DNA of 64,000 nt from Thermoplasmata archaeon (GCA_021790425.1 JAJYEA010000001.1:67015-131014), one strand, 5' to 3'. Shown: positions 25,172 to 63,562, numbered from the stretch's first letter. Made by a program: numbers and translations. Notes: generated from the sequence alone by a model not told the origin.

Positions 25172-25291
25172 AGTCGTGCCCTCCCCTCGAGGACTGTGGG
25201 CGATTCGGGGGCGGACCACGCGCGGGGGTAACAGATACGACCCTGACGGTCCAACCTGTTGATTGATAGCTCACGGGTGCTTGTCGGACCA

Positions 25292-26080: not shown

Positions 26081-26206
26081 CGCATTGCTGAATGCTGAGG
26101 GCCCCCTTCGAAAGGAGCGGGAAGGACATGGGTTCCGGTAGCGGACTGGCGCGGCCGGTCGCACTCCGCCAACAAGCCGCTATGGGTATGATGGATGGTG
26201 AGGCGA

Positions 26207-29320: not shown

Positions 29321-29556
29321 AACCCAGCCCCTGACTATACCGGAGGACAGTAACGTGGGTCCGTATGTTGTCTTGAGCGATGAGGGTTATTGACCAGGGT
29401 GCGTGGCGCCCGCTTCCTTTGGCGACCGCGGGAATCACGAGACTACCGGGTCCGTGCTCTACCCGGAACACTTCCTCCGCTTCTGGATGGCTATTCGGCC
29501 AAATCCGACTCTATCCCTGACGTCACAGTCTGGTCCACGGGTGCTCGCACGAAGTG

Positions 29557-34576: not shown

Positions 34577-34586
34577 GTAGGCAGCC

Positions 34587-35174: not shown

Positions 35175-35185
35175 GGTACTAGAAA

Positions 35186-35569
35186 ATGGCACGCGTCGGG
35201 ATAGCCCACATCTACGCATCGTACAACAACATCCACATCACCGTCACCGACCTCACGGGGTCGGAGACGCTCGCGAACGCGACCGGAGGCATGGTCGTGA
35301 AGGCCGCCCGCGATGAGTCGAGCCCCTACGCGGCCATGAAGGCGGCCGACCTGGTGGCGGGCCTCCTCAAGGAGCGGGGCTACGACACCGTTCACGTCAT
35401 GGTCCGAGCCCCCGGGGGCAACCGCTCGCGCTCTCCCGGACCCGGAGCCCAGGCCGCGATCCGTGCCCTCGCCCGGGCCGGCATCAAGATCGGCCGCATC
35501 GAGGACGTCACCCCCATCCCGCACGACGGCACGAAGCCGAAGGGCGGACGCCGCGGTCGCCGGGTGTAG
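35186..35569 (+). CDS. rps11: 30S ribosomal protein S11 (uS11)
   Basis: [26 protein letters not shown]... Confidence 0.9.
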
Positions 35570-35587
35570 CCCGGAGGCGCCCAAATT

Positions 35588-44246: not shown

Positions 44247-44321
44247 GGGACTGTGGGGTAGCTTGGTCCATCCTATGGCGTTCGGGACGCTGTGACTCCG
44301 GTTCAAATCCGGACAGTCCCA
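44247..44321 (+). tRNA. tRNA-Pro (anticodon CGG)
   Basis: Hand-folded. Acceptor GGGACTG/CAGTCCC, U8, A14, G18G19, A21. Anticodon stem TGGCG/CGCTG (two G-U pairs) with loop TTCGGGA (U33, G37). T arm TCCGG-TTCAAAT-CCGGA. Discriminator A. Confidence 0.7.
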
Positions 44322-44343
44322 CTCCTCAGCCGCGATGGGTTCC

Positions 44344-47332: not shown

Positions 47333-47354
47333 ACCATTGCGCTCTCGTAGCTTT

Positions 47355-48539
47355 GTGGGGGAGTCCGGACCGAAGGGAAAGCCCGACGCCTACCGGTGGG
47401 TGGTCCTCTCCGCCTTCATGGGCCCGAGCATCGTCGCCCAGATGCTCTGGATCACCTTCGCAGCGCTACCCACCTGCTCCACGGCGGTGCTCTGCCCCAC
47501 CGGAGCCAACGAGACCTGGCTCACCGCGATCTACCCGTTCGTCTTCTTCGTCATCTCGATCCCGGTGGGCTACCTGGTCGACCTCCGGGGCTTCCGGAGC
47601 CCGGTCATCGTGGGAGCGGCGCTCCTCGCCGCCTCCGGGCTCCTGCGCCCCTTCGCTCCCACGTTCCCGCTCCTGCTCGCCGTGCAGGGAGTGGGGGCGG
47701 TCGGTCAGCCCTTCATCCTGAACAGCATCTCCAAGCTCGTCCGGGGGTGGTTCCCGGCGTCCGAGGTCGCCACCGCGACGGGAGTCGGGACCCTTTCCAT
47801 CTTCATCGGGATCGCCCTGGGACTGGGTCTCACCCCCGTGCTCGCCGAGGGGTGGGGCATCCCAGCGATGTTCGAACTGTACGGCGTGATCGCCCTCCTG
47901 GCCTTCCTCCTCTTCGCCGCGGTCGCGCGGGACCCGCCGGGGGCCCGGCCCCGCGAAGCGCCCCCAACGCTGCGCGCGATCGTGGGGATGCTCCGGGTGC
48001 GCAACATCGTCCTGCTCTCGGCCCTCTTCTTCGCGGGGATCGGGATCTTCAACTCGTTCGCCACGTACGTCGAGCCGATGCTGGAGGCGCGGTCGGTGCC
48101 CCTCGACCTCGCCGGGATCCTGGGCGGCGGGATGATCCTGGGAGGGATCGTCGGCGCCGTGGTGCTCAGCGTGGTCTCGGACCGTTACCACACGCTCCGT
48201 ACCCCCCTGCTGGCCGCGCTCGGGGTCTCCGCCATCCTGTGGGCGCTCCTGGGGATCGTGAGCGGGACGGTTCCGGAACTCCTGGTGCTCATCGCGGTAG
48301 GATTCTGCTTCATGGCGACACTCCCGCTCGGGCTCGAGCTCGCGGCCCGGAGCGTGCCCCCCTCCTCCGAGGGGGCCGCGAATGCCCTCGTGTGGGAGTT
48401 CTCCCAGATCGGAGGGACCGTCCTCATCTTCGTCTTTGAAGGGGTCGGCCAGGGGTTCGGCTGGACGCCCACGTTCTTCCTGGCCGCCGTGATGGTGGCG
48501 GTCATGTTGGTGCTCGGGCTCGCGACCGTCGACAAGTAG
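47355..48539 (+). CDS. MFS-family transporter
   Basis: 12 TM helices. Probable leaderless GTG start at 47355; alternative ATG at 47418. Confidence 0.75.
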   Translation: MGESGPKGKPDAYRWVVLSAFMGPSIVAQMLWITFAALPTCSTAVLCPTGANETWLTAIYPFVFFVISIPVGYLVDLRGFRSPVIVGAALLAASGLLRPFAPTFPLLLAVQGVGAVGQPFILNSISKLVRGWFPASEVATATGVGTLSIFIGIALGLGLTPVLAEGWGIPAMFELYGVIALLAFLLFAAVARDPPGARPREAPPTLRAIVGMLRVRNIVLLSALFFAGIGIFNSFATYVEPMLEARSVPLDLAGILGGGMILGGIVGAVVLSVVSDRYHTLRTPLLAALGVSAILWALLGIVSGTVPELLVLIAVGFCFMATLPLGLELAARSVPPSSEGAANALVWEFSQIGGTVLIFVFEGVGQGFGWTPTFFLAAVMVAVMLVLGLATVDK

Positions 48540-48609
48540 AGGCGGCTTTTGCCCGCCCGACCAGCTTCATATGGCTCGTTGGCATGAATAACTATGGAGT
48601 TGGCACGCC

Positions 48610-51558
48610 TTGTCTTGGCATGTACCGCTGCCGCGGGGGAAGAAGACTGAGTCGAACGTGTGGACCATCGGACTGGCCTTGGTGTTGCTCGCCTCACCCA
48701 TGGCCATCCTCGCCCATGCCCAACCTGCCCCGTCCTCCTCTCAGGCAAGAGGGGTGACGGCTGCCGGTTCGGCCGGGCGGGTCTCTGCGGCTCCGAACGG
48801 CGCTTCCCCGCGGGCCCCCGCGGCCACCCTGAGCGGCATCGATGTCTCGGGCTACCAGGGCGCGAGCATCAACTGGGCCTCGGTCAAGTCGGCCGGGAAC
48901 AGCTTCGCCTTCGCCCGCGCGGTCGAGTACTACGGTGTCTCGGACACGGATTTCGCCACGAACATGGCGAACGGCAAGGCGGCCGGAGTCTACATGGGCG
49001 CCTACGACTTCGTCTACCCGTCCAGCGAGTCGTCGACCTCCGACGCCGACTATTTCAACAGCATCATCAAGCCCTATGTCGCGTCGGGATACATGTACCC
49101 CGCGCTCGACCTAGAAAAGGACTGCTCCGCCTCCGGGGGAACGATGAGCGCATCCCAGATCACCACATGGGTGAACGGCTGGGGAACGGAGCTCGAGGCC
49201 GACCTCGCGACGGACGGCTTCCCGGGCGTCCACCCGATCGTCTACATGAACTCGAACTACGCCAACAACTGCATCGTGGCCTCCTCGTGGGGGGGCTGGA
49301 GCCTGTGGATCGCCGAGTACTACAACACGTGCGCCACCTCCCCGGCACCGAACACCGGGGTGTTCAGCACCTACGCTTTCTGGCAATGGTGCAGCACGGG
49401 AAGCTCCGGCGGGATCAGCCCCGTTGACCAGGACGTGTTCAACGGGGGCCTCTCCCAGCTCCAGGGCGGGTATCTCTTCGGCCTCTCCGTCTCCTACGCG
49501 ATGAAGGACCTGACGACCAATACGGTCCTCTACTGCGGTGGGTCTTTCCTGACCGGGGACAATATCCAGTTCACGGGCTCCGCCACCGGAGGGAGCGGCA
49601 CGTACACCTACGCCTGGAAGTTCGGGGACGGGTCGACGGGATCGGGGAACCCCGCCACCCACGTCTATTCGGCCACCGGGACGGTCGACCCCATGCTGAC
49701 CGTGACGGATTCGAACGGTGCGTCGGCGACCACCGGGAGCGGATGTTCGTTCACCGTGAACGCAGGGCTGTCGGTCTCCACCCCGCTTTCTGCCTCGCCG
49801 AACCCCGTCGTGATCTACAACTCCACCACCTTCACGGTCACCGCGTCGGGGGGAACCAGCCCCTATTCGTACTCCTATTCGGGACTCCCGGGTGGGTGCA
49901 TCTCGGGCAGCACCAACAGCCTGGGATGCACCCCTTCGGTCGCGGGCGCCTTTCCCGTGAAAGTCACTGTCACCGACGCCGCCGGACGTACTGCGACCTC
50001 CTCCACCACGCTCACCGTGACCGCGCCCGCACTGGTGGCGGGACCCCTGACGGCCACCCCTGCGACCATCGTGCTCAACGGCACCACGAACCTCTCGATC
50101 ACCGTCTCCGGAGGGGTTCCGCCGTATTCGTATGCCTACTCGGGTCTCCCTTCGGGATGTGCCTCCTCGAACGTCTCGCTCCTGGCGTGCACCCCGACCC
50201 AGACGGGAACGTTCACGGTATCCGTGACGGTGAGCGACCGGGCGGCGCAGACCCAGCAGGCGAACACCACGTTGACCGTGGTGGCCTCCGCGCTCATCGT
50301 TGGACCGCTCGTGGCCAGTCCGCCCACCGTGGCCGCCAACACCACCACGAACTTGTCGGTCCTGGCCTCCGGAGGGGTTCCTCCCTACACGTACGTCTAC
50401 GCCGGCCTGCCCCCCGGGTGCCTCTCGTCCAATGCCTCGTCCGTCCCCTGCCAGCCCACGGTACCCGGCACGTTCAATGTCTCGGTGACCGTGAGCGACC
50501 GGAGCGGGCAGACGCAGACCGCGAACACCACGGTGATCGTCACCCCCGATGCGCTCGCGATCACCTCGTTCGCGGCAACGCCTTCCCGGATCCTCCTCGG
50601 CAACAACACCACCCTCGCGGGCGCTACCTCGGGAGGGATCGGGCCTTACACGTATGTCTACGGAGGGCTCCCGAACGGATGCTCCTCGGTCAACGCGACC
50701 CTTCTGCTCTGCACACCGGTGGCGTTCGGATCGTTCAATGTCACCTGGACGGTGACGGATGGGCAAGGGGCGTCCCAAGAGGCCTGGACGATCCTGACGG
50801 TGACGGAGGGGGTGGTCGTCACGGGATTCAGTATCCAGCCGTCCCCCCTCGCCTATGGGAACGTCACCCAGCTCCGGGTAACGGTCCAGAACGGGACGCC
50901 GCCCTATGCGTACGCCTACAGGGGACTGCCCACCGGATGTACCTCCAAGGACGCCTCCAACTTCAGCTGCACGCCTTTGGAGCTCGGCACCTTCAACGTG
51001 ACCGTCGTGGTCCAGGACGCGAACCATCTCGAGGGGGTGGGCACCGCTCGGCTGGTCGTCGTCGGGGCGCTCGTGCTCACGGGCTTTGTGGCGTCGCCCG
51101 CGGTCGTGACCCTCGGGAACAGCTCCACCCTCACCGTGACGGTCGCGGGAGGGGCTCCGCCGTACTCCTACACCTACTCGGGCCTGCCGGAGGGATGCGC
51201 GACCGAGAGCACCGGCACGCTACCCTGCAAGCCCACGGTCACGGGGAACTTCTCGATCATCGTCTCCGTGGCGGACACCTCGGGATCCGACGCGCACCGT
51301 TCCCTGGTGCTCCAGGTCGTCTCGCCGCCCCCCCCGACCCACACGACCTCCCCTACGAGCGGGCTCCCGGGGGGCCTCCCGATCGCCACCCTTGCCCTCC
51401 TCGGGGTTCTCGTTGCAACGCTCGTGGTGGGAGCGATACTCATCGTGCACCGTCGCCGGAAGAGGTCCGAGGCCCCCCCGCCCGCTTGGACCCCGGCGGA
51501 GGCACCGGCGGGGGTGGAGGGCGCCCCGATGACCGGCAGCGATTTCCCTCCCCCGTAG
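48610..51558 (+). CDS. membrane-anchored surface protein: signal peptide, GH25 muramidase (lysozyme) domain, PKD domain, 6 x ~90-aa two-Cys Ig-like repeats, C-terminal TM
   Basis: GH25 consensus GIDVSGYQGASINWASVKSAGNSFAFARAVEYYGVSDTDFATNMANGKAAGVYMGAYDFVYP. PKD signature YAWKFGDGSTGSG..THVY. Repeats of the form ..SGG.PPYSY.YSGLP.GC.S.N.S...CTP...G.F.V.VTV.D. C-terminal helix LLGVLVATLVVGAILIV plus HRRRKR. TTG start with a signal-peptide-like N-terminus; alternative GTG at 48658. Confidence 0.8.
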   Translation: MSWHVPLPRGKKTESNVWTIGLALVLLASPMAILAHAQPAPSSSQARGVTAAGSAGRVSAAPNGASPRAPAATLSGIDVSGYQGASINWASVKSAGNSFAFARAVEYYGVSDTDFATNMANGKAAGVYMGAYDFVYPSSESSTSDADYFNSIIKPYVASGYMYPALDLEKDCSASGGTMSASQITTWVNGWGTELEADLATDGFPGVHPIVYMNSNYANNCIVASSWGGWSLWIAEYYNTCATSPAPNTGVFSTYAFWQWCSTGSSGGISPVDQDVFNGGLSQLQGGYLFGLSVSYAMKDLTTNTVLYCGGSFLTGDNIQFTGSATGGSGTYTYAWKFGDGSTGSGNPATHVYSATGTVDPMLTVTDSNGASATTGSGCSFTVNAGLSVSTPLSASPNPVVIYNSTTFTVTASGGTSPYSYSYSGLPGGCISGSTNSLGCTPSVAGAFPVKVTVTDAAGRTATSSTTLTVTAPALVAGPLTATPATIVLNGTTNLSITVSGGVPPYSYAYSGLPSGCASSNVSLLACTPTQTGTFTVSVTVSDRAAQTQQANTTLTVVASALIVGPLVASPPTVAANTTTNLSVLASGGVPPYTYVYAGLPPGCLSSNASSVPCQPTVPGTFNVSVTVSDRSGQTQTANTTVIVTPDALAITSFAATPSRILLGNNTTLAGATSGGIGPYTYVYGGLPNGCSSVNATLLLCTPVAFGSFNVTWTVTDGQGASQEAWTILTVTEGVVVTGFSIQPSPLAYGNVTQLRVTVQNGTPPYAYAYRGLPTGCTSKDASNFSCTPLELGTFNVTVVVQDANHLEGVGTARLVVVGALVLTGFVASPAVVTLGNSSTLTVTVAGGAPPYSYTYSGLPEGCATESTGTLPCKPTVTGNFSIIVSVADTSGSDAHRSLVLQVVSPPPPTHTTSPTSGLPGGLPIATLALLGVLVATLVVGAILIVHRRRKRSEAPPPAWTPAEAPAGVEGAPMTGSDFPPP

Positions 51559-51710: not shown

Positions 51711-54700
51711 GTGTCCGGCGGTGGTTGCCGAGGCATAGCACGGATATCTTCATTACCCCGACGGGCTCTTGCCTCGCTCGTGCGCTGGACCCGACCCACG
51801 CTGGCGTTGGTGCTCACGGCGATCTTGGTGGCAGGGTTCCTGGCCATCCCGGGAGCTCCCGGTGACATGGAGCACGGGGCGGCCCAGCTCTCGGCCGGGC
51901 TCCTTACGATGCTCCCAGCGTTCGAGTCCATCTACCCGGGCGCCCGAGACCTCGGAGCGGTTGCCCCGTCCACCCCGATGACGGTCGGCCTGGCCCTCTC
52001 TCCCAACGACCCCCGCGCGCTCGACGCGTACGTGTATGCCGAGTACACCCCCGGGTCCCCCGCCTACGGTCACGAGCTCAACCCGCAGAAGTTCCAGACG
52101 TACTTCTCCCCCTCCGCAGCGGACTACCGCGCGGTGCAGAGCTACTACGCGGCCTACGGGCTCTCGACGATCACGACCCCCGACCGGCTGATGATCGGCC
52201 TCACCGGGACGGCGGGTCACATTTCGAATGCCTTCCACACGAGCTTCCACCGCTTCCAGTTGACCGACGGGGCCGACGTCTACGGGGCCTCCCAATCGGT
52301 GGTGGTTCCGGCAGGGCTGTCGATCGACGGGGTCACCGGGATGACGAACGCCTGGGGTCCCCGACCGACCGATATCAACCCCGGGCAGGTCGAGGCCGCC
52401 GCGGCGGGCTGGGCCCACAGCGAGAAGACGGCCACGCCGGGAACATGGACATGCACCTCCGGCACGCAAGGGTGTGACGAGCCCGGCTACTACGGCGAGT
52501 ATCCCCTCTTCAACGCAGGGGATACCGGCCAGGGTGTCAACGTGGGGATCGTCGACGCCTACGACAGTGCCGAGACCCAGTCCCAGCTCCTGAGCTCCGA
52601 GCAGAGCTTCGCGAGCGGGGCAGGGCTGCCCGCGCCGCACGAGAACTTCTGGTACCCGATCCCGGGTGCGGGCAACCTGAACACCTCCGCGAGCAGCGGA
52701 TGGGCAGGGGAGACCGACCTCGACCAGCACATGGCCTTCATGGACGCTCCCGGGGCCAACATCGATGTCACGTTCGCTTCCGACAGCTCCTTCGCGGTCT
52801 ACGAGGCCGTGGACTTCCTGGTGGCCCACAACCTGACCCAGACCATCTCGATGTCGTGGGGCGAGTCCGATGTGGGGAACATGCAGGCGCCTCCCCAGGG
52901 TCCGTGCATGCCCTACTACAGCTGCAACGCGTCGTATGACGGCTCCTACGCCTTCCTTCACCCCGTGTTCGCGGAGGCCGTGGCCGAGGGGATCACCCCC
53001 TTCGCGGCCGCCGGGGACTGTGGCGCGGCGGACGGCACTTACACGGTCGCGACGGACTACCCTTCGAGCGACCCCTTCGTGGTGGGCGTGGGAGGCACCC
53101 AGCTGAACGGCAGCGGCTCCACCTATGCGGGGGAGACGGGATGGAGCGGCAACGGCACGGGATGCACCGCGAACACCGGGGGCGGGGGCGGAGGCTACGC
53201 GCCCTGGGCCCAGCCCTGGTGGCAGCACGGCCCGGGCCAGCTCACCCACCACCTCCGGGGAGTACCGGACGTCAGCGCGGACTCGGCGGACGGGACCAGC
53301 CAGGCGTCCCCGATGTGGGCCGGCTGGGTCGCCGTGGCCGACCAGATCCACGGAGGGGGGCTCGGGCTCATCGGCCCCTCGATGTACAACATCCTGAGCA
53401 ACGCCACGGAATACGCGGCCGACTTCCACGACATCAAGACCGGGAACAACGGGTACGCCGCGGGCACCGGTTGGGACCCCATCACGGGGATCGGGACCCC
53501 CGTCACTGGCGCGCTCTTGCCGGCGCTGGGCCGCTACCTGCCGCCCGTCCACGGGTCCTTGAACGTCTCCCTCGCGGCCACGCCGACCTCGGGCTCCGCG
53601 CCCCTGTCCGTCACGTTCACCGCCTCTGCGAGCGGAGGCACCCCTCCCTACTGGTACGACTTCGTGCCCGGGCTGTACCTGGGCCAAGTCTCGAACACCC
53701 CGTCCATCACCTACCCGTACGCCTCGGCCGGACCGTACTACGCGACGGTCGTCGCGTGGGATGCCGCGGGCAACTCCTCCATCTCCAACCCGGTCCTCGT
53801 CCACGTCGGCGACTCCGCGTTGACGGCGACGCTCGCGGCCTCCGCGACCCACGTTCTGGTCGGGCAGACCGTCACCTTCACGGGAGGGGCGAGCGGCGGG
53901 ACGGCACCGTACCAGTTCACGTACTTCTACGGGGACGGCACCTACGGATACAACCGGAGCACGAGCGCGACGCACGCCTACCTCTCTCCGGGCACCTACT
54001 GCGCCTACGCCTTCGTGACGGATGGGGCGGCCACGCAGAACGGCGGTGTCACGAACCCGGTCTGCGTCACGGCGAGCTATTCCTCAGGGTCGGGTCCCAC
54101 GATCTCCTCCTTCACGGCCTCCCCTTCCACCATCACCGTCGGCGGCACGACCTACCTCAACGTCTCCGCCTCCGGCGGGACGGGACCCCTCGCCTACGCC
54201 TACTCCGGCCTTCCCGCCCCCTGCGCGAGCTCCAACTCCAGCGCCATCACGTGCACCCCTTCCGCCGTGGGCGGTCCCTACTCCATCACGGTGACCGTCA
54301 GCGACAGTGCCTCTCCCCGTCACACCACCAGCGCCACGACCTCCTTCACGGTCACCTCGACCGGAGGCACGGGACCGACCATCTCCACCTTCACCGCGAG
54401 CCCCTCCTCCATCCCCGCGGGGGGCACGACCTACCTCAACGTCACCGCCTCGGGAGGCGTCGGCCCGCTGACCTACGCCTACTCCGGCCTTCCCACTCCC
54501 TGCGCGAGCTCCAACTCGAGCTCGATCACCTGCGCCCCCGCTTCCTCGGGAGGGCCGTACACCATCACCGCGACGGTCTCCGACTCGGCCCCGTCTCCCC
54601 ACTCCACCTCTGCCACCACCTCCTTCACCGTCACCCCGAGTGGAGGGACGGGACCGACCATCTCCTCCTTCACCGCGAGCCCGGCCTCTATCCCCGCGGG

Positions 54701-55958
54701 GGGCACCACCTACCTCAACGTCACCGCCTCGGGAGGCGTCGGACCCCTGAGCTACGCTTACTCCGGGCTCCCCGCTCCCTGCGCGAGCTCCAACTCCAGT
54801 TCGATCACCTGCGCCCCCACCTCCTCGGGCGGTCCGTACACCATCACCGTGACGGTCAAGGATTCGGCCTCGACTCCCCGCTCCACCTCTGCCACCACCT
54901 CCTTCACCGTCACCCCGAGCGGAGGGACGGGACCGACCATCTCCTCCTTCACCGCGAGCCCCTCCTCCATCCCCGCGGGAGGGACGACCTACCTCAACGT
55001 CACCGCCTCGGGAGGCGTCGGGCCCCTGAGCTACTCGTACTCCGGACTTCCCGCCCCCTGCACCAGCACCAATGCGAGCAGGATCACGTGCGCCCCCACC
55101 TCCTCGGGCGGTCCGTACACCATCACCGCGACGGTCAAGGATTCGGCGTCCTCGCCCCACACGACCGCCGCCACCGCCACGTTCACGGTCACCCCGGCCC
55201 CGCTCGCGATCAGCAGCCTCACCGCATCCCCCGCATCGATCCCCTCGGGAGGAACCACGTTCCTGAACGTGACCGCCACGGGGGGGTACCCCGCCTACAC
55301 CTACCTGTACAACGGCCTGCCTTCGGACTGCGCTTCCGCGAACGCGTCCACCCTGACGTGCTCCAGCATCCTGGCCGGCACCTATGATGTCACGGTCAAG
55401 GTCACCGACACCGCATCGAACTCGGCGACCCGGTCGGCCCCCTTCACCGTGCAACCGTCGGTGGCGAGCAAGCCGGTCGTGAGCCAGTTCTACGCTTCGC
55501 CCAGCCCGCTTGCCCTCGGAGGACAAACCACCTTCTACGTGTCCGCCACCGGAGGGGCTCCGCCCTACACCTACAGCTATGTGGGACTTCCCACGGGATG
55601 CTCCAGCTCGAACTCGGGATCCCTCTCGTGCACCCCGACCGGCACGGGGACGTTCAACGTCACCGTCACCGTGACGGACACCCGAGGTCAATCGGCCCTG
55701 GCGAACACCTCGGTCGTCGTCACGGCGGCACCGAGCTCGGGACCGGGGTCGACCGGGATCCTGTCGGGTTGGTCGCTCTGGATCCTGCTCGCGGTCGTCG
55801 TGGTCGCGGTGGTCATCGCCGCCGTCCTCGTTTCACGCCGACGCAAGGGACCCGGGAACGCCACCCCTCCCGGGTATCTGCCCCCGGGAGCGACCTCCGC
55901 GAGCCCGCCCTGGCAGGCGCCTCCGGGGGCTCCTCCGCCAGCCCCCTGGCAGGAGTAG
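51711..55958 (+). CDS. membrane-anchored surface protease: pro-kumamolisin-like propeptide, sedolisin (S53) domain, PKD domain, 6 x ~93-aa two-Cys Ig-like repeats, C-terminal TM
   Basis: GWAGETDLDQHMAF and GTSQASPMWAG S53 motifs. PKD signature YFYGDGTYGYN..THAY. Repeats of the form GPTISSFTASP..GGTTYLNVTASGGVGPLSYAYSGLPAPCASSNSS.ITCAP. C-terminal helix LWILLAVVVVAVVIAAVLV plus SRRRK. GTG at 51711; alternative GTG at 51777 (MRWTRPTLALVLTAILVAGFLAI), with an AT-rich box ~30 nt upstream. Confidence 0.8.
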   Translation: MSGGGCRGIARISSLPRRALASLVRWTRPTLALVLTAILVAGFLAIPGAPGDMEHGAAQLSAGLLTMLPAFESIYPGARDLGAVAPSTPMTVGLALSPNDPRALDAYVYAEYTPGSPAYGHELNPQKFQTYFSPSAADYRAVQSYYAAYGLSTITTPDRLMIGLTGTAGHISNAFHTSFHRFQLTDGADVYGASQSVVVPAGLSIDGVTGMTNAWGPRPTDINPGQVEAAAAGWAHSEKTATPGTWTCTSGTQGCDEPGYYGEYPLFNAGDTGQGVNVGIVDAYDSAETQSQLLSSEQSFASGAGLPAPHENFWYPIPGAGNLNTSASSGWAGETDLDQHMAFMDAPGANIDVTFASDSSFAVYEAVDFLVAHNLTQTISMSWGESDVGNMQAPPQGPCMPYYSCNASYDGSYAFLHPVFAEAVAEGITPFAAAGDCGAADGTYTVATDYPSSDPFVVGVGGTQLNGSGSTYAGETGWSGNGTGCTANTGGGGGGYAPWAQPWWQHGPGQLTHHLRGVPDVSADSADGTSQASPMWAGWVAVADQIHGGGLGLIGPSMYNILSNATEYAADFHDIKTGNNGYAAGTGWDPITGIGTPVTGALLPALGRYLPPVHGSLNVSLAATPTSGSAPLSVTFTASASGGTPPYWYDFVPGLYLGQVSNTPSITYPYASAGPYYATVVAWDAAGNSSISNPVLVHVGDSALTATLAASATHVLVGQTVTFTGGASGGTAPYQFTYFYGDGTYGYNRSTSATHAYLSPGTYCAYAFVTDGAATQNGGVTNPVCVTASYSSGSGPTISSFTASPSTITVGGTTYLNVSASGGTGPLAYAYSGLPAPCASSNSSAITCTPSAVGGPYSITVTVSDSASPRHTTSATTSFTVTSTGGTGPTISTFTASPSSIPAGGTTYLNVTASGGVGPLTYAYSGLPTPCASSNSSSITCAPASSGGPYTITATVSDSAPSPHSTSATTSFTVTPSGGTGPTISSFTASPASIPAGGTTYLNVTASGGVGPLSYAYSGLPAPCASSNSSSITCAPTSSGGPYTITVTVKDSASTPRSTSATTSFTVTPSGGTGPTISSFTASPSSIPAGGTTYLNVTASGGVGPLSYSYSGLPAPCTSTNASRITCAPTSSGGPYTITATVKDSASSPHTTAATATFTVTPAPLAISSLTASPASIPSGGTTFLNVTATGGYPAYTYLYNGLPSDCASANASTLTCSSILAGTYDVTVKVTDTASNSATRSAPFTVQPSVASKPVVSQFYASPSPLALGGQTTFYVSATGGAPPYTYSYVGLPTGCSSSNSGSLSCTPTGTGTFNVTVTVTDTRGQSALANTSVVVTAAPSSGPGSTGILSGWSLWILLAVVVVAVVIAAVLVSRRRKGPGNATPPGYLPPGATSASPPWQAPPGAPPPAPWQE
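54080..55200. repeat. tandem 279-bp near-identical coding repeats (4 copies) in the second S53 gene
   Basis: gggacgggaccgaccatctcc(t/a)ccttcaccgcgagccc recurs at ~54377, ~54656 and ~54935. Confidence 0.75.
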
Positions 55959-56090: not shown

Positions 56091-56684
56091 ATGAGCGCCA
56101 GACCGGTAGCCCTACCGGGGGGCCATGGACTCTACGAAGTACGATTCCACGGACGCGGAGGGCAGGGGACGGTCATCGCGTCCACGCTCCTGGCGGAAGC
56201 TGCCTTCCTCGAAGGCCGGGACGTGCAGGCCTTCCCCTTCTTCGGTGTCGAGCGCCGGGGAGCGCCCGTGCTGGCGCACACCCGGATCGGGGAGGGACAG
56301 ATCCGGCTGGCCACCTCGGTCCGCTATCCGGACGCGATCATCGTGATGGACCCCACGCTCGTGCGGCCGGGCAGCCCGATCTTCGCGAGCCTTCGCGCGG
56401 GTGGGGACGTCCTGGTCAACACCGTGCGGCCCCCTCGGGAGCTTCAACTGGCCGTGGACGGCCACCTGGCCTCCGTGGACGCCGTGAGCGTCGCGATCCG
56501 TCACGGGCTGGGGTCGCGGGCGAACCCGATCGTGAACACGGTCATCCTGGGAGCCTTTGCGAAGCTCACCCACGTGGTGGAACTCTCCTCGCTCGAGGAG
56601 GCCATCCGGCAGAAGGTGCCCTCCCACACCGATGCGAACATCGCGGCCGCGCGTGAGGCCTACGGGCTCGTGGAGGCCGCATGA
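56091..56684 (+). CDS. porG: pyruvate/2-ketoisovalerate:ferredoxin oxidoreductase gamma subunit
   Basis: YEVRFHGRGGQGTVIAS...FPFFGVERRGAPV. Confidence 0.9.
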   Translation: MSARPVALPGGHGLYEVRFHGRGGQGTVIASTLLAEAAFLEGRDVQAFPFFGVERRGAPVLAHTRIGEGQIRLATSVRYPDAIIVMDPTLVRPGSPIFASLRAGGDVLVNTVRPPRELQLAVDGHLASVDAVSVAIRHGLGSRANPIVNTVILGAFAKLTHVVELSSLEEAIRQKVPSHTDANIAAAREAYGLVEAA

Positions 56685-56953
56685 CGACCCTCGCCGGGCG
56701 CGATCTCATCGGGCCCATGGCGTGGATGTCCAGCGAGCCGGGTTCCACGGCCGCCTCGTGGCGGACCCAGCGCCCGCAGCTTGACACGGCCAAGTGCACG
56801 GGATGCATGGTCTGCTGGAAGTTCTGCCCGGACACGGCGATCGCCCCGGAAGGGAAGAAGGTCGCGTTCGACTTCAACCTCTGCAAGGGATGCGGCGTCT
56901 GTGCCCAGGTCTGCGCACCGAAGGCCATCGACATGCTCCCGGAGGGCCTCTGA
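56681..56953 (+). CDS. porD: pyruvate:ferredoxin oxidoreductase delta subunit (2 x [4Fe-4S] ferredoxin)
   Basis: CTGCMVCWKFCP and CKGCGVCAQVCAP. Start overlaps the porG stop (ATGA). Confidence 0.9.
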   Translation: MTTLAGRDLIGPMAWMSSEPGSTAASWRTQRPQLDTAKCTGCMVCWKFCPDTAIAPEGKKVAFDFNLCKGCGVCAQVCAPKAIDMLPEGL

Positions 56954-58125
56954 TGACGCGGCATCTCCTGTCGGGGAATCAGGCCGTCGGCGAGGCGGTG
57001 CGCCTGGCACGGGCCCAGGTGGTGGCCGCCTACCCGATCACCCCCCAGACCACGATCGTCGAGCATCTGGCCGAGGCCGTCGGGAAGGGAGACCTCCTGG
57101 CGGACTTCATCACGGTCGAGAGCGAGCACTCGGCGATGGCGGCCTCCGTGGGCGCGTCGATCGCCGGGGCCCGCGCCTTCACCGCCACCTCGAGCCAGGG
57201 TCTCGCGCTCATGCACGAGATGCTCCACTGGGCGTCCGGCCAGCGGACCCCCGTCGTCATGGCGAACGTGAACCGCGCGCTCGCCCCCCCGTGGAACATC
57301 TGGGTGGACCACTCGGACTCGATGGCCCAGCGCGACACCGGCTGGATCCAGGTCTACGCGGAGACGAACCAGGAGGTCCTCGACACGATCCTCCAGGTCT
57401 ACCGGTTGGCCGAGGACAAGCGGGTCATGGTGCCCGCGATGGTCATGCTCGATGCCTTCTCGCTGTCGCACACGTACATGCCGGTCGACGTCCCGGAGTC
57501 GGACGTGATCGACCGCTACCTTCCCCCGTACTCCCCTCCCCAGAAGGTGCTGCCCGAGACCACGCAGCTCTTCGGGTCCTTCTCGCCCCCGGAGCTTTGC
57601 TACATGGAGCTCCGCCACGACCTCGAGGTCGCGATGCACCAGGCCCGGATACTCCTGCCCCAGGTGGAGGAGGAGTACACCCAGCTCACCGGACACCCGT
57701 CCTTCGGCGCCGTGGACGAGTACCGGACCGACGACGCGGAGGTGGTGCTGATGGCCATGGGCTCGCTCGCGGCCACCGCACGCGACGCGGTCGACGCCCT
57801 GCGCCGGGAAGGCAAGAAGGTGGGGCTCGCACGGATGCGGCTCTTCCGGCCCTTCCCCGCGGATGCGGTCCGATCGCTCGGGGAGCGATTCCACCGGATC
57901 GCGGTGCTCGACCGGGCCGTGTCCTACGGGTCCGGAGGACCGCTGGCGGGCGAGGTGCGCGCCGCACTCCTCGGGATCGCCGACCCGCCCGTTCTCGCCG
58001 CCTACATCGCCGGCCTCGGCGGGCGCGAGGTCACCCAGGAGCAGATCCGCTCGATCTTCGAGCGGCTGCTGAGCGGCAACGGTCTCCCCTCGGAAGAGTG
58101 GGTCGGACTGAAGGTGGAGGGGTAA
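56953..58125 (+). CDS. porA: pyruvate:ferredoxin oxidoreductase alpha subunit
   Basis: GNQAVGEAVRLARAQVVAAYPITPQT. TGATG overlap with porD. GGAGGG RBS. Confidence 0.9.
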   Translation: MTRHLLSGNQAVGEAVRLARAQVVAAYPITPQTTIVEHLAEAVGKGDLLADFITVESEHSAMAASVGASIAGARAFTATSSQGLALMHEMLHWASGQRTPVVMANVNRALAPPWNIWVDHSDSMAQRDTGWIQVYAETNQEVLDTILQVYRLAEDKRVMVPAMVMLDAFSLSHTYMPVDVPESDVIDRYLPPYSPPQKVLPETTQLFGSFSPPELCYMELRHDLEVAMHQARILLPQVEEEYTQLTGHPSFGAVDEYRTDDAEVVLMAMGSLAATARDAVDALRREGKKVGLARMRLFRPFPADAVRSLGERFHRIAVLDRAVSYGSGGPLAGEVRAALLGIADPPVLAAYIAGLGGREVTQEQIRSIFERLLSGNGLPSEEWVGLKVEG

Positions 58126-59144: not shown

Positions 59145-60188
59145 ATGCCCGAACGGGGGGGACCAACCCAGGAGACGATGCTGCGGGCCCTGAAGCTGAT
59201 GGTGACGGGCCGCGTGGCCGACGAGCGGAGCGTGAACCTGCAGCGCCAGGGACGGATCGGTTTCTATGTCCAGATGGACGGGCAGGAAGCGGCCCAGGTC
59301 GGATGCGGGCTCGCCCTGGAGCCGGAGGACTGGGTGGTCCCGGCCTACCGGGAGCTCGGCGTGGCGCTCGCGCGGGGGGTCCCGCTCCAGACGCTCTTCG
59401 ACCAGTTCTACGCCAACTCCAACGATGAGAACAAGGGACGCCAGATGCCCACCCACTACGGCTACCGGGCGTACCGCTACGTGACCGCCTCGAGCCCGGT
59501 GGGTACCCAGATCATCCACGCGGTGGGCCTCGGCATGGCGGCCCGCTACAAGGGGGAGAAGTCCGTGACGGTCCCCTTCTTCGGGGATGGCGCGACCAGC
59601 TCGAGCGACTTCCACGCGGGGCTCAACTTCGCGGGGGTCTACAACGCCCCGGTCGTCTTCTTCTGCCAGAACAACGGGTGGGCCATCTCGCTCCCGCGGG
59701 AGAAGCAGACCCGGTCGAAGACGCTCGCCGGGAAGGCCGAGGCCTACGGCATCCGCGGCGTCCAGGTCGACGGGAACGACTTCGCCGCCGTCTACCGCGT
59801 GGTGCAGGAGGCGCGGGAACGGGCGGTCTCCGGAGAGGGGCCCACGCTCGTGGAGGCGTTGACCTACCGCATGGGTTCCCACTCCACCTCGGACGATCCC
59901 ACGCGCTATCGTTCTACGGCCGAGGTGGCGTCGTGGAAGCAGAAGGACCCGATCGAGCGGCTCGCGCGCGACCTCATCGCGCGCGGGTGGATCACGGAGG
60001 ACCAGTTCGAGGCCCTTCAGGAGGCCGCCCGGGCCGAGGTCCAGGCCGCCATCCAGACGGCCGAACAGACCCCGCCGACGTCGCCCGACACGCTCTTCAC
60101 CGACGTCTTCAAGAGCAATCCCAGTTACGTCGAGGAGCAGAGGGCCGAGCTGAGCGAACTCGTGCGGGAGGGAGTGGTGAAGCCATGA
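59145..60188 (+). CDS. 2-oxoacid (branched-chain/pyruvate) dehydrogenase E1 component alpha subunit (TPP)
   Basis: GDGATSSSDFHAGLNFAGVYNAPVVFFCQNNGWAIS TPP motif. YRxGxHSTSDDP phosphorylation-loop-like region. AT-rich box (gtcataaagcc) ~28 nt upstream of the ATG. Confidence 0.9.
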   Translation: MPERGGPTQETMLRALKLMVTGRVADERSVNLQRQGRIGFYVQMDGQEAAQVGCGLALEPEDWVVPAYRELGVALARGVPLQTLFDQFYANSNDENKGRQMPTHYGYRAYRYVTASSPVGTQIIHAVGLGMAARYKGEKSVTVPFFGDGATSSSDFHAGLNFAGVYNAPVVFFCQNNGWAISLPREKQTRSKTLAGKAEAYGIRGVQVDGNDFAAVYRVVQEARERAVSGEGPTLVEALTYRMGSHSTSDDPTRYRSTAEVASWKQKDPIERLARDLIARGWITEDQFEALQEAARAEVQAAIQTAEQTPPTSPDTLFTDVFKSNPSYVEEQRAELSELVREGVVKP

Positions 60189-61165
60189 CGCAGGTCACGC
60201 TGATCCAGGCCATCAACCAGGGGCTCCGGCAGGCCATGAAGACCGACCCGGACGTCGTCCTCATGGGCGAGGACATCGGGGTGAACGGTGGTGTCTTCCG
60301 GGCGACCGACGGGCTCTACAAGGAGTTCGGGGAAGCACGGGTCATCGACACCCCCCTGAGCGAGAACGGGATCGTCGGGATGGCGATCGGGATGGCGCTC
60401 TACGGCCTCAAGCCCGTCGCGGAGATCCAGTTCATGGACTTCATCTACCCCGCCTTCGACCAGATCGTCAACGAGGCGGCGAAGTTCCGGTACCGGTCGG
60501 GCGGCCAGTTCCCCTGCCACGTGGTGATCCGTACCCCCTTCGGGGGCGGGATCCGGGGCGGGCTCTACCACTCGCAGAGCACCGAGCAGCTCTTCGCGAG
60601 CACCCCGGGGCTCAAGGTGGTGATCCCCTCCACCCCCGCGGATGCGAAGGGGTTGCTCCTCACCGCCATCCACGACGAGGAGGACCCCGTCATCTTCCTC
60701 GAGCCGAAGAGGATCTACCGCACCGCGACCGGCGAGGTGCCGGAGGGCGACCACCGGATCCCGTTCGGAAAGGCCCGGGTGGTGAAGGAGGGGAGCGACG
60801 TCACGGTCGTCTCCTACGGCGCGATGGTCCCCCAGTCCCTCCAGGCGGTCAACGCGGTGGAGAAGATGGGCGTCCACGCGGAGCTCATCGACCTGCGCAC
60901 CCTCGTCCCCCTCGACTACGAGACCGTCCTCCGGTCGGTCGAGAAGACCGGTCGCGCGGTGATCGTCCACGAGGCGTCCAAGTTCGCCGGGTTCGGCGCG
61001 GAGCTCTCCGCGATCATCTCCGAGCGGGCGCTCTACCACCTCAAGGCCCCCATCCTGCGGATCGCGGGATATGACACTCCGTTCCCCTACGCCCTGGAGA
61101 ACCTCTACCTGCCGAGCGTCGACCGGATTGCGCGAGGGATCGAGCGGACCGCCACCGCGACCTAG
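60185..61165 (+). CDS. 2-oxoacid dehydrogenase E1 component beta subunit
   Basis: Transketolase-like pyrimidine-binding and C-terminal domains. ATGA overlap with E1alpha. Confidence 0.9.
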   Translation: MTQVTLIQAINQGLRQAMKTDPDVVLMGEDIGVNGGVFRATDGLYKEFGEARVIDTPLSENGIVGMAIGMALYGLKPVAEIQFMDFIYPAFDQIVNEAAKFRYRSGGQFPCHVVIRTPFGGGIRGGLYHSQSTEQLFASTPGLKVVIPSTPADAKGLLLTAIHDEEDPVIFLEPKRIYRTATGEVPEGDHRIPFGKARVVKEGSDVTVVSYGAMVPQSLQAVNAVEKMGVHAELIDLRTLVPLDYETVLRSVEKTGRAVIVHEASKFAGFGAELSAIISERALYHLKAPILRIAGYDTPFPYALENLYLPSVDRIARGIERTATAT

Positions 61166-61184
61166 GGTCGCGGGGGCTTGAACC

Positions 61185-62477
61185 ATGTACGAATTCCGGC
61201 TGCCGGACATCGGAGAAGGGGTCGCCCAGGGAGAGGTCGTCAAGTGGCACGTCAAGGTCGGTGACGCGGTCCGCGAGGACCAGCCGCTGCTCAGCGTCCT
61301 GACGGACAAGGCGAACGTGGAGATCCCCTGCCCGGTCCAGGGCAAGGTCACCGCCCTCCACGCCCAGGAGGGCCAGGTGGTCCCGGTCGGCTCCCTGCTC
61401 GTCACCTTCGAGACCGAGGGCAAGGCGCCGCCCCCTGCCGCCCATGGCGTGGCGGCTGCCCCCCCGCCGCCCGCGGCAACCCCAGCTTCCCCACCCCCGG
61501 CTCCCTCGGCCACCGTGGTCACCACCCCGGCCATCCGACGGCGGGCCAACGAGCTCGGGGTGGACCTGCGCCTGGTCCCGGGGACCGGGCCCTCCGGCCG
61601 GATCGTCGACGCGGACCTCGACCGTTTCGTGAAGGGCGGGGGCAAGGCACCGCCCCCTGCCGCCCCGGGTGCACCGCCTGCGCCGCCTGTCCCGGCGTCC
61701 CCTCTCGGGGTCGCCCGTGCCGCCATCCCCTCCCCGCCGCAAGCCCCCTTGGTGACAGGGGAGGGAGCTCCCCTTCAGGAGCGGGTCCCCATCCGTGGAC
61801 TCCGCCGGACCATCGCGGAGCACATGGCGCTCGCGAAGTCGCGCGCGGCCCACTTCACCTACGTGGAGGAGATCGATGTCTCCGAGCTCGTGCGCGTGCG
61901 GGAGCGGGCGAAGAAGCGGATGGAGGAGAAGGGGGTCCCGCTCACCTATCTCCCCTTCATCGTGAAGTCCGTGGTGGAGAGCCTGAAGGACCATCCCACC
62001 CTGAACGCGCTCATGGACGACGAGAAGGGCGAGCTGGTGGTCTGCCACTACTACCACATCGGGGTCGCCACCGCGGCGCCGGACGGACTGATCGTGCCCG
62101 TGGTGAAGAACGCCGACCACAAGTCCATCGCGACGATCGCGAAGGAGATCGAGGACCTCTCCGCGCGGGGCCGGGCGGGGAAGCTGTCCCGGGAGGAGCT
62201 CACCGGCTCCACCTTCACCATCTCGAGCCTCGGCGCCCTGGGCGGTGTCCTCGCCACCCCCATCCTCAACTACCCCGAGGTCGCGATCCTGGGCGTGCAC
62301 AAGATCGAGAAGAAGCCCGTGGTGCTCGCCGACGGGACGATCGGGATCGGTCACCGGATGAACCTCTCCATCAGCCTTGACCACCGGGTGGTCGATGGCT
62401 ACGTCGGCGCCCAGTTCCTCGCGGCGGTCAAGGGGCGGCTCGAAGACCCGCACCAGCTCCTGCTGGAACTGCGATGA
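61185..62477 (+). CDS. 2-oxoacid dehydrogenase E2 component (dihydrolipoamide acyltransferase), single lipoyl domain
   Basis: Lipoyl motif LSVLTDKANVEIP. E3-binding domain TPAIRRRANELGVDL. Catalytic DHRVVDG. Confidence 0.9.
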   Translation: MYEFRLPDIGEGVAQGEVVKWHVKVGDAVREDQPLLSVLTDKANVEIPCPVQGKVTALHAQEGQVVPVGSLLVTFETEGKAPPPAAHGVAAAPPPPAATPASPPPAPSATVVTTPAIRRRANELGVDLRLVPGTGPSGRIVDADLDRFVKGGGKAPPPAAPGAPPAPPVPASPLGVARAAIPSPPQAPLVTGEGAPLQERVPIRGLRRTIAEHMALAKSRAAHFTYVEEIDVSELVRVRERAKKRMEEKGVPLTYLPFIVKSVVESLKDHPTLNALMDDEKGELVVCHYYHIGVATAAPDGLIVPVVKNADHKSIATIAKEIEDLSARGRAGKLSREELTGSTFTISSLGALGGVLATPILNYPEVAILGVHKIEKKPVVLADGTIGIGHRMNLSISLDHRVVDGYVGAQFLAAVKGRLEDPHQLLLELR

Positions 62478-63562
62478 GCGCCGCGGTGGCGGGACTCGTC
62501 CCCCTGCCGTACGGCCGGGAGGACCTCCCCGGGCTCCTCGGGCCGAACTGGGAGGAGTGGCTGAGGACCGCCTACCGCTGGATGCTCCTCGGTCGTGTCC
62601 TCGACACCCGGATGCTCGGGATGCAACGCCAGGGCCGGGTGGGGTTCTACGGTCCCGCCACGGGGCACGAGGCGGCCAATGTCGGCCTGGCGCTGTCGCT
62701 CCGGAAGGAGGACTGGGTCTTTCCCGGTCTCCGGGAACAGCTCGTCGCGCTCGCCCGGGGCCACCCCCTGGGCCAGTACGTGCACCACCTCTTCACGAAC
62801 GGTGTCGACCCCTGCAAGGGACGCCAGATGCCGTGCCACCCCACTGCGCGGGAGGTCCACTACGTCTCCATGTCCAGCACGGTGGGCTCCCAGATCATCC
62901 ATGCCGTCGGATGTGCCTACGCCATGCGGCTCCGGAAGGACCCCGGGGCGGCCGTGGCCTGTTTCGGCGACGGGGCCACGAGCACGAACGAATTCCACGC
63001 CGGGATGAACTTCGCCGGCGTCTACCAGCTGCCGGTGCTCTTCTTCTGCGCGAACAACCAGTGGGCCATTTCCCTGCCGGTGTCGAAGCAGACGAGGGTC
63101 CCGGTGCTGGCCGACAAGGCGGGGGAGTACGGCTTTAACGGGGTACGAATCGACGGGACGGATGTGATTGCCGTGTTCCACACCGTACGGGCCGCGCGGG
63201 AGCGTCTGGCGGAGCAAGGACCCACCCTCGTCGAACCCCTCGTCTACCGGATGACGCCGCACACGTCCTCGGACGACCCCACCCGGTACGTCCCGAAGGG
63301 ATGGATGGAGGAGGCGGCCGCGCACGACCCGCTTACCCGTCTCGAGGAACTGCTGGACCGCACGGGCGTCCTCGCGGTGACGGCCCGGGAGACGCTCCGG
63401 CAGGAGCTCGAGACCGAACTCCGCAAGCTCATCGCCGAGGCCGAGGTCACCCCTCCCCCGGGTCCCGACACGCTCTTTGTGGACACGTTCCGGGACACCT
63501 TCTGGCCGCTGACCGAGGACCGGGATTCCTTCGATCGAGAGCAGGGAGGGCATTTCCCATGA
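62474..63562 (+). CDS. second, divergent E1 alpha paralog (TPP-dependent 2-oxoacid dehydrogenase alpha) between E2 and E3
   Basis: GDGATSTNEFHAGMNFAGVYQLPVLFFCANNQWAIS. Roughly 50-55% identity to the first E1alpha by eye. ATGA overlaps at both ends. Confidence 0.85.
   Translation: MSAAVAGLVPLPYGREDLPGLLGPNWEEWLRTAYRWMLLGRVLDTRMLGMQRQGRVGFYGPATGHEAANVGLALSLRKEDWVFPGLREQLVALARGHPLGQYVHHLFTNGVDPCKGRQMPCHPTAREVHYVSMSSTVGSQIIHAVGCAYAMRLRKDPGAAVACFGDGATSTNEFHAGMNFAGVYQLPVLFFCANNQWAISLPVSKQTRVPVLADKAGEYGFNGVRIDGTDVIAVFHTVRAARERLAEQGPTLVEPLVYRMTPHTSSDDPTRYVPKGWMEEAAAHDPLTRLEELLDRTGVLAVTARETLRQELETELRKLIAEAEVTPPPGPDTLFVDTFRDTFWPLTEDRDSFDREQGGHFP

Follow-up and report, generated by a model that had tools for sequence, protein, structure and literature searches.

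What use would an archaeon without murein have for a murein-degrading enzyme held at its own surface? The question is raised by a gene for a protein of 982 residues in a stretch of 64,000 nucleotides from a Thermoplasmata archaeon (GCA_021790425.1, JAJYEA010000001.1:67015-131014), which we call the window, meaning the whole stretch analysed; positions are counted from its first letter. An earlier reading of the window, made without database searches and here called the sequence-only reading, had proposed that the gene encodes a lysozyme domain of glycoside hydrolase family 25 (GH25), fused to a PKD domain and to a long glycosylated repeat stalk with a membrane anchor, and that the enzyme is a horizontally acquired antibacterial muramidase. 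From the computational evidence assembled here, we consider it probable that the product is a type I membrane glycoprotein exposing an active GH25 muramidase on the cell surface, that its role is mainly digestive, and that its catalytic head was acquired once, long ago.

The GH25 domain

As judged by profile, modelled fold and catalytic residues, the N-terminal domain is a bona fide GH25 domain, the agreement going far past what chance would give. The Pfam profile Glyco_hydro_25 (PF01183) matches residues 77-268 over profile positions 1-179 of 180 (E=6.7e-26; 92.1 bits against a cut-off of 27), and the two signatures recognized in the sequence-only reading, GIDVS (residues 76-80; nt 48835-48849) and GAYDFVYP (residues 130-137; nt 48997-49020), are confirmed. 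The span 48610-49500 that had been given for the domain comprises the signal peptide, a linker and GH25; the domain proper is narrower (Table 1). An AlphaFold2 model of the domain, made with the family alignment, has a predicted local distance difference test (pLDDT) value of 82.8 and a predicted template-modelling score (pTM) of 0.84. When this model was compared with structures in the PDB using Foldseek, the top 18 matches were all GH25 proteins, with 1jfx first (template-modelling score 0.75/0.82; root mean square deviation 2.8 Å; 32% identity), and the modelled fold is the GH25 (β/α)-barrel.

The closest solved relative by sequence is likewise 1JFX (E=5e-26), which is cellosyl, the muramidase M1 of Streptomyces coelicolor. 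Cellosyl is the best match in sequence and structure and its Asp9, Asp98 and Glu100 all have equivalents here, whereas it differs in being a soluble, secreted, single-domain protein of 217 residues from another GH25 subclade. Amongst the members of the archaeal family described below, D78, Y132, D167, E169, Q259 and D273 are invariant (37/37), and D78 is also present in 49 of 49 other sequences; conservation of the catalytic Asp and Glu, proposed earlier as a check on the domain, is thus borne out. Two cysteines, C172 and C221, are invariant in the archaeal family as well and are rare among the bacterial relatives. The head is predicted to have β-1,4-N-acetylmuramidase activity on peptidoglycan and is apparently active.

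Export, stalk and membrane anchor

The TTG at 48610 is the first start codon after an in-frame TAA (48589-48591), and the identical product of 982 residues has been called in three independent assemblies (NCBI, ENA and Logan). A hydrophobic segment at residues 15-38 (Kyte–Doolittle (KD) value 2.16) belongs to a predicted Sec-type signal peptide, from which a twin-arginine motif is absent and whose cleavage would fall between AHA and QP. The Ser/Ala/Pro-rich linker that follows has pLDDT <50 at the N-terminus of the model and is 25-47% identical across the family.

Beyond the GH25 domain lie a PKD domain (PF00801 PKD, E=8.4e-21, 74.2 bits against a cut-off of 23.5; PF18911 PKD_4, E=3e-16, 59.7 bits against a cut-off of 27), six tandem repeats of 87 residues and a transmembrane segment, much as the sequence-only reading had described. 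A stalk repeat is modelled (pLDDT 94) as a seven-strand β-sandwich, for which the best structural matches are the cadherin-like stalk modules of SraP, PKD domains of collagenase, Rib, and the PKD domain of an archaeal S-layer protein, 1L0Q. The protein has 20 N-X-S/T sequons, every one of them within residues 404-880, where 6.0±2.1 would be expected and where none of 2000 shuffles reached 20; the GH25 and PKD domains contain no sequons. The glycosylation of the stalk, also part of the earlier description, is a supported prediction.

The C-terminal helix spans 22 residues and is followed by HRRRKRS, a Pro-rich tail of ~30 residues and the stop codon. Because these positively charged residues come directly after the helix, we infer a type I topology. 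Anchoring by way of PGF-CTERM and an archaeosortase was considered and rejected: there was no PGF-CTERM match, the LPXTG and Loki-CTERM models scored 13.1 and 10.5 against thresholds of 15.9 and 19.9, respectively, and a tail of 36 residues follows the helix. As no sorting-signal model reached its threshold, the protein would have a plain type I anchor. With an N-terminal signal and a C-terminal transmembrane segment that recurs in 19 of 20 family members, a protein built in this way would keep the enzyme on the surface of the cell, as had been suggested.

The host and the archaeal family

The host is an archaeon of the class Thermoplasmata, and contamination, which had been named among the findings that would undo the sequence-only reading, can be excluded for practical purposes. 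The locus corresponds to contig DAHWRD010000093.1 of the metagenome-assembled genome (MAG) GCA_027340385.1. The window encodes an archaeal uS13-uS4-uS11-RpoD operon (33959-36433), together with an archaeal-type TIM, an ADP-forming acyl-CoA ligase, 2-oxoacid:ferredoxin oxidoreductases and a 2-oxoacid dehydrogenase complex, and every relative returned by a marker search with its RpoD bears the name Thermoplasmata, Thermoplasmatota or Euryarchaeota archaeon, so that the names reach class level only. The G+C content (GC) is 0.66-0.70 around the GH25 gene, and the GC at third codon positions (GC3) of the gene itself, 0.87, is like that of its neighbours. In a sister strain (L044) the locus has 97.8% nucleotide identity and the gene order is kept, including the neighbouring gene for an S53 protease (sedolisin). 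The GC of the window (~68%) and its S53 proteases match the published description of Lutacidiplasmatales, with ~69% GC and S53 and thermopsin exoenzymes (PMC9287336). Placement in Lutacidiplasmatales/TMEG on the basis of GC (~69%), S53/thermopsin enzymes and GH15, is suggestive, and is not claimed, the RpoD search having resolved the host to class only.

The gene is not an isolated case. A homology search with the full-length protein found ~20 clusters of proteins of 800-1220 residues that combine GH25 and PKD with repeats of Ig or FN3 type, and a scan of GTDB with one genome per species found 17 loci at >=40% identity, with two or three copies per genome. By contrast, a search with the domain alone, in which matches had <=45% identity across the greater part of its length and made it appear orphan-like, reflects a word-index artefact and is not evidence of isolation. 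All 17 loci are in Thermoplasmata MAGs except for two contigs of ~3 kb in a bin labelled ‘bacterium’ (DX1.bin10); as the copies in that bin (L015 and L027) branch right beside those of a Thermoplasmata MAG, FK3.bin56, the bin is probably mis-binned or mislabelled.

Family members have archaeal flanks, including genes for GatD/GatE, Spt5-NGN, L11, FtsZ, TruD, Pelota and fibrillarin. A GatDE...L11-Spt5 neighbourhood (GatDE/L11-Spt5-FtsZ) is common to several of the deep-branching members, and two paralogues sometimes adjoin there. Pairs of GH25-PKD paralogues near GatD-GatE are found, for example, in two other Thermoplasmata MAGs (L006, 4239-6992 and 10001-12760; L008, 10001-12733 and 13848-16580), the L006 pair being divergently oriented with another PKD-repeat protein between. 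A signal-like N-terminal segment is present in 17 of 20 members. Taken together, the comparisons indicate that this is a lineage-wide, paralogue-rich family restricted to related Thermoplasmata MAGs, chromosomal and partly syntenic.

Identity to the nearest members is 64-79% in GH25 and 56-71% in PKD, and falls to 23-43% in the stalk, where some members have other repeat types instead. Relative to the sister strain, the ratio of non-synonymous to synonymous substitution rates (dN/dS) is 0.28 for the gene as a whole, 0.21 for GH25 and 0.13 for PKD, values that rest on small counts (36 synonymous and 28 non-synonymous changes). By these measures, constraint is concentrated on the GH25-PKD head, whereas the stalk varies.

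Origin of the head

The archaeal sequences group together as a single clade in neighbour-joining (NJ) trees, initially with 20 of 20 and then with 37 of 37 sequences, and no bacterial sequence falls inside it. The clade contains at least three paralogue subclades, and since each includes the same MAGs the duplications are likely to be old. The phylogenetic check that the sequence-only reading had proposed therefore returned a separate archaeal clade, with a bootstrap value of 42-45 only in NJ and with bacterial sampling that was set by the search methods. An exhaustive profile search, which recovered 31,361 GH25 representatives at E<=1e-3 and 1,234 at E<=1e-30, showed a gradual passage of scores from the archaeal type to other multi-domain GH25 proteins, with no sharp gap. 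In view of the weak bootstrap and the graded scores, we treat the topology as a working hypothesis. It should be noted that the top profile scores of three proteins (P0287, P0288 and P0290) do not indicate close kinship; they are due to the two or three tandem GH25 domains in each of these proteins, of which P0287 also has a PPC pre-peptidase domain.

The nearest neighbours in the NJ tree are from Bacteroidia, followed by Planctomycetota and Verrucomicrobiota; cellosyl-type actinobacterial sequences and those of Firmicutes are more distant, the single Firmicutes sequence in the tree being from Paraclostridium. The Bacteroidia relatives combine GH25, PKD and Por_Secre_tail, which marks them as cargo of type IX secretion (T9SS), and the verrucomicrobial relatives have an N-terminal GH25 domain followed by Ig-like arrays. 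A strong C-terminal transmembrane segment was found in none of the bacterial relatives examined (Bacteroidia and Verrucomicrobiota). Conversely, the C-terminal sorting domains Por_Secre_tail and CHU_C are absent, by Pfam, from the window protein and present in Bacteroidia (L030 and L032). When the archaeal head is aligned with a Bacteroidia protein, a single high-scoring segment pair (34% identity, E=5e-37) covers GH25, linker and PKD. One Bacteroidia example (L030:5950-7788, MAG JBKQUY01) is NJ sister to the archaeal clade and resembles the window protein in its N-terminal GH25 followed by PKD, in being exported and in its predicted association with the surface; it differs in ending with Por_Secre_tail, in place of which the window protein has six Ig-like repeats and a transmembrane helix, and in belonging to a host with murein.

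These comparisons suggest that GH25 and PKD were taken up together, as one exported head, and that its bacterial sorting domain gave way to a stalk and anchor belonging to the archaeal lineage. The PKD domain, to which the enzyme is fused in the sequence-only reading, was probably not an archaeal addition, the collinear arrangement being present already in the T9SS cargo of Bacteroidia, and the archaeal novelty would lie in the stalk and transmembrane anchor. The direction of transfer is likely to have been from bacteria to archaea, because GH25 is very broadly distributed in bacteria and phages and is confined here to a single archaeal lineage. For its horizontal acquisition, proposed in the same reading, the basis is the weakly supported NJ topology; a singular or recent event does not fit a lineage-wide, paralogue-rich family with host-like composition, and the transfer appears to be old. 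Phage lysins may be part of the history of the wider clade: one of the closest small GH25 relatives, with 40% identity (L011, JGI 3300038381, P0002 at 10001-11086) lies in a phage-like block of mostly unannotated open reading frames with an M23 peptidase.

Comparison with known enzymes

One precedent is the GH25 protein of Aciduliprofundum boonei (B5ID12 / WP_008084055.1), the domain of which is bactericidal and kills Bacillaceae, and the transcript of which rises in co-culture with a bacterium (Metcalf et al. 2014, PMC4241558). It has an affinity with Firmicutes, is inherited vertically in the genus and was unique among 323 archaeal genomes in 2014 (PMC4241558). In both cases a Thermoplasmatota archaeon lacking murein carries a GH25 domain of bacterial ancestry. 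However, the A. boonei protein has ~575 residues in the order SH3_3, Amidase_6 and GH25, and is encoded by a single, genus-restricted gene of a Firmicutes-like clade, whereas the window protein has 982 residues with GH25 at the N-terminus, followed by PKD, Ig-like stalk and transmembrane helix, and has no SH3 or amidase match; its family is nearest, in the weakly supported NJ tree, to Bacteroidia and the Planctomycetes–Verrucomicrobia–Chlamydiae (PVC) group and has two or three paralogues per genome in many MAGs. Judging from architecture and from the phylogenetic neighbours in a tree built without the A. boonei sequence, the acquisition is apparently separate from that of A. boonei.

A survey by Strock et al. 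in 2025 (PMC12352652) found modular peptidoglycan hydrolases (PGHs) in ~5% of archaeal genomes, under a definition that needs a Pfam cell-wall-binding domain. Thermoplasmatota were prominent carriers, and the PGHs described are soluble, secreted, patchy in distribution and enriched on plasmids and small contigs; attack on murein was shown for two enzymes, and archaeal PGHs (M23) from Halogranum kill a bacterium (PMC12352652). In the tables of that paper A. boonei and its relatives have SH3_3, Amidase_6 and GH25, there is no PKD architecture, and Thermoplasmatota GH25 occurs only in Aciduliprofundales. The family described here resembles these PGHs as a set of archaeal enzymes of bacterial ancestry predicted to attack bacterial murein, and differs in being membrane-anchored, chromosomal and lineage-wide, and in having the catalytic domain with no Pfam match to a wall-binding domain, on which the survey's definition depends. 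The precedent for archaeal GH25 enzymes as antibacterial agents, which the sequence-only reading had mentioned, is documented (PMC4241558; PMC12352652).

The S53 and thermopsin surface peptidases of uncultured Thermoplasmatota, for example those of Lutacidiplasmatales (PMC9287336), are also comparable, in that one chassis of stalk plus transmembrane helix carries the GH25 head and S53 proteases in the window and thermopsins in homologues. They are proteases, and a muramidase head on the chassis is unmentioned in that paper and its examined supplements. No account of an archaeal GH25 that is anchored in the membrane or linked to PKD turned up in full-text literature searches. The general concept is known already; what is new is a stalk-tethered GH25-PKD family missed by current catalogues, with a plausible replacement of the sorting module.

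Digestion or attack

The scheme that we favour can be set out as follows. After export the signal peptide would be removed, and the protein would be kept anchored by its C-terminal helix. A stalk of seven β-sandwich domains would hold the head ~25-30 nm from the membrane, an estimate from typical sizes of Ig and PKD domains. The head would hydrolyse the β-1,4 bonds between N-acetylmuramic acid and N-acetylglucosamine (MurNAc-β-1,4-GlcNAc) in bacterial peptidoglycan that makes contact, be it in live neighbours or in wall debris, and an archaeon without murein would need no immunity. The role would be extracellular digestion, as part of the surface-tethered hydrolase toolkit of a heterotroph living on peptides and organic matter, with lysis of neighbouring bacteria as a by-product or second use. 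The head would have been acquired once, long ago, from a bacterium of Bacteroidota or PVC type in which it was an exported enzyme; the C-terminal domain (CTD) recognized by the T9SS would then have been replaced by the lineage's stalk and transmembrane anchor, and two or three paralogues per genome would have arisen afterwards.

A digestive role seems the most likely, given that S53 proteases in the vicinity of the gene and thermopsins elsewhere in the lineage are mounted on the same stalk and anchor. The six stalk repeats of the adjacent sedolisin are alignable with the stalk of the GH25 protein (four of the six are near-identical copies of 93 residues), the heads seen on homologous stalks in a homology search include thermopsin, sedolisin and phosphoesterase among others, and a sedolisin also lies next to a family member in L004. 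Anchors of the same kind are found in three further proteins of the window: the second sedolisin (9660-14216), an NHL-propeller protein (26207-29320) and a sequon-rich protein (7-2985).

Several points weigh against this interpretation. No peptidoglycan-binding module (LysM, SH3, PG_binding, SPOR or choline-binding) has a Pfam match in the whole protein, and a substrate-binding function of the PKD domain is an assumption. No genes for catabolism of peptidoglycan sugars (amino sugars) were found beside the GH25 gene, the adjacent genes are not conserved across the family, and the adjacent major facilitator superfamily (MFS) gene is generic. The outer membrane of Gram-negative bacteria, or an S-layer, shields murein from a tethered head, which limits killing. 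The low bootstrap and graded profile scores noted above bear on the single, ancient acquisition. For every family member activity and localisation are predictions, and the preference for feeding over a weapon is a matter of likelihood.

The sequence-only reading took the enzyme to be a probable antibacterial muramidase, and a use as a weapon is a compatible alternative; the occurrence of the same stalk on S53 proteases and thermopsins fits a digestive role at the surface at least as well. In its fuller form, in which the enzyme is primarily a weapon that kills competitors on contact, or after the head has been clipped by a surface protease such as sedolisin and diffuses away, we regard this explanation as the strongest rival and nevertheless unlikely. 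The A. boonei enzyme kills Bacillaceae and its transcript responds to co-culture (PMC4241558), Halogranum PGHs kill a bacterium (PMC12352652), and the several paralogues per genome, with heads diverging to 41% identity, resemble arms-race diversification; shedding is possible, since the disordered Ser/Ala/Pro linker and the Pro/Thr linker flank the ectodomain and a protease gene adjoins. However, a transmembrane anchor in 19 of 20 members argues that tethering itself has been selected, the chromosomal, partly syntenic and lineage-wide distribution is unlike that of weaponised PGHs, which are patchy or plasmid-borne (PMC12352652), and digestive proteases on the same stalk fit feeding.

A bolder version of the digestive scheme is that soil and sediment Thermoplasmata have domesticated and multiplied a bacterial exo-lysozyme, exchanging its T9SS module for a stalk, and that these tethered, stalked lysozymes lyse bacteria by contact and feed on them, a form of bacterivory that might be either predation or grazing on necromass. 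We put this forward tentatively, and think it rather doubtful in so complete a form.

Alternatively, the GH25 fold may have been turned to a target other than murein, such as fungal chitin or chitosan, exopolysaccharide or the archaeon's own surface glycans, or may serve as a wall-binding adhesin or lectin. Such neofunctionalisation would suit archaea that have no murein of their own and a protein that lacks any canonical cell-wall-binding domain; the family-invariant C172 and C221, rare in the bacterial relatives, point the same way, as does the fact that stalked Ig-repeat proteins are typically adhesins, with SraP and Rib being the best structural matches of the stalk. We consider it improbable: all of the GH25 active-site residues are invariant in 37 of 37 members, which is unexpected for a pure adhesin, and the closest bacterial relatives are exported GH25 proteins of murein-containing bacteria. 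To our knowledge, lysozyme is the only activity described for GH25 (CAZy).

Finally, the idea of a bacterial contaminant, chimeric assembly or mis-binning, to which the MAG source and the family members in DX1.bin10 lend some colour, has a negligible chance of being correct, in that the gene occupies a central position on a long contig that also carries archaeal ribosomal, RNA polymerase and TIM genes, recurs in three independent assemblies and in a sister strain at 97.8% nucleotide identity, has host-like GC and GC3, and has relatives in other MAGs flanked by GatD/GatE, Spt5, L11, fibrillarin and Pelota, the ~3 kb DX1.bin10 contigs next to the FK3.bin56 copies having probably been mis-binned the other way.

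Attack on bacteria has been demonstrated for very few archaeal enzymes, namely the A. boonei GH25 and two M23 enzymes of Halogranum. The only systematic survey was directed at modular hydrolases of the soluble type with a recognised wall-binding domain, and screens for such domain pairs would miss this family. The family represents a second, apparently independent acquisition of GH25 in another Thermoplasmata lineage, one that is fixed, partly syntenic, expanded and tethered on a stalk shared with proteases. If active, these enzymes would give a cloneable handle on whether uncultured heterotrophic archaea of soil and sediment digest or kill bacteria at their surface, and would widen the current estimate of the frequency of anti-murein enzymes in archaea. 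The apparent change from a T9SS sorting domain to an archaeal anchor would be an example of an exported enzyme re-plumbed after inter-domain transfer.

Features and neighbouring genes

The features of the gene and of the two sedolisin genes are collected in Table 1. The AT-rich patch ATGAATAACTATGG upstream of the start codon is a possible TATA-like promoter element, in which case the transcript would be short-leader or leaderless; its promoter role is inferred, the promoter scanner used having no coverage of archaeal promoters.

Table 1. Positions of the predicted features of the GH25 gene and of the sedolisin genes in the window
Feature	Position	Strand	Basis
AT-rich patch ATGAATAACTATGG	48584..48597	+	13-26 nt upstream of start codon; surrounding DNA ~68% GC
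Predicted stalk-tethered GH25 muramidase, coding sequence, complete, 982 residues, TTG start	48610..51558	+	Open reading frame, three assemblies, GC3
Predicted Sec-type signal peptide, residues 1-37	48610..48720	+	n-region RGKK, core VWTIGLALVLLASPMAILA, AHA/QP
Ser/Ala/Pro-rich linker, residues 38-73	48721..48828	+	Sequence
GH25 muramidase domain, residues 74-285	48829..49464	+	Pfam, 1JFX, model, Foldseek
Asp78 (cellosyl Asp9)	48841..48843	+	1JFX alignment
Asp167-Leu-Glu169, D-x-E motif (cellosyl Asp98/Glu100)	49108..49116	+	1JFX alignment
PKD domain, residues 296-385 (Pfam core 309-375)	49495..49764	+	Pfam PKD, PKD_4
Stalk, six tandem 87-residue Ig-like repeats, residues 388-907	49771..51330	+	Repeat register, PY[ST]Y.Y.GLP.GC and a Cys pair in each
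Pro/Thr-rich membrane-proximal linker, residues 908-924, PPTHTTSPTSGLPGGLP	51331..51381	+	Sequence
Predicted transmembrane anchor helix, residues 925-946	51382..51447	+	Strongest hydrophobic segment, KD 2.98
Predicted cytoplasmic tail, HRRRKRS, Pro-rich stretch and stop	51448..51558	+	Sequence
S53 (sedolisin) neighbour	51711..55958	+	Pro-kuma_activ E=2e-25, PKD, six stalk repeats, transmembrane helix, RRRK tail
Second large S53 sedolisin	9660-14216	-	PKD, C-terminal transmembrane helix and basic tail

The start of the S53 neighbour is placed by gene callers at ~51780 or ~51867. The upstream MFS gene (47337-48539) was considered as an AmpG-like muropeptide permease and set aside, there being generic MFS matches only, far under the cut-offs; its adjacency to the GH25 gene is kept in the sister strain only and not in other family members. 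A conserved operon around the gene was likewise rejected, the order in the window being MFS-GH25-sedolisin as against GatDE/L11-Spt5 in other members. The sequon-rich protein mentioned above (7-2985, + strand) is encoded by an open reading frame of 992 residues with no Pfam match, an unusual codon-position GC (0.46 at first positions, GC1, and a GC3 of 0.94), 59 N-X-S/T sequons, a C-terminal transmembrane segment and a Lys/Glu/Asp-rich tail; these features suggest a surface protein with very heavy glycosylation.

Other observations on the window

A stretch of lower GC (0.59-0.63 over ~6 kb, 23484-30000) follows a tRNA-Leu(CAA) gene at 23484-23568, and encodes a haloacid dehalogenase (HAD) hydrolase, a methyltransferase and the NHL/YNCE β-propeller surface protein of 1037 residues. 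The part at 24-30 kb was considered as an integrated element linked to gene transfer and rejected, having no integrase and lying 20 kb from the GH25 gene. ARAGORN reported a tRNA-Pro(CGG) gene at 44247-44322 (+ strand), but the tRNA-Leu noted above was the only tRNA reported by an Rfam scan at the gathering threshold. The RpoD of the window (35588-36433, + strand) has an insert weakly similar to 4Fe-4S ferredoxin-type proteins (ArrB and HydN matches), and many of its homologues carry Pfam Fer4; by this likeness it would be an RpoD of the Fe-S-cluster type. Genes for a 2-oxoacid (pyruvate-type) dehydrogenase (59145-63562, + strand; two of E1-α type, and E2) adjoin those for pyruvate:ferredoxin oxidoreductase (56091-58125), so that both routes are encoded side by side.

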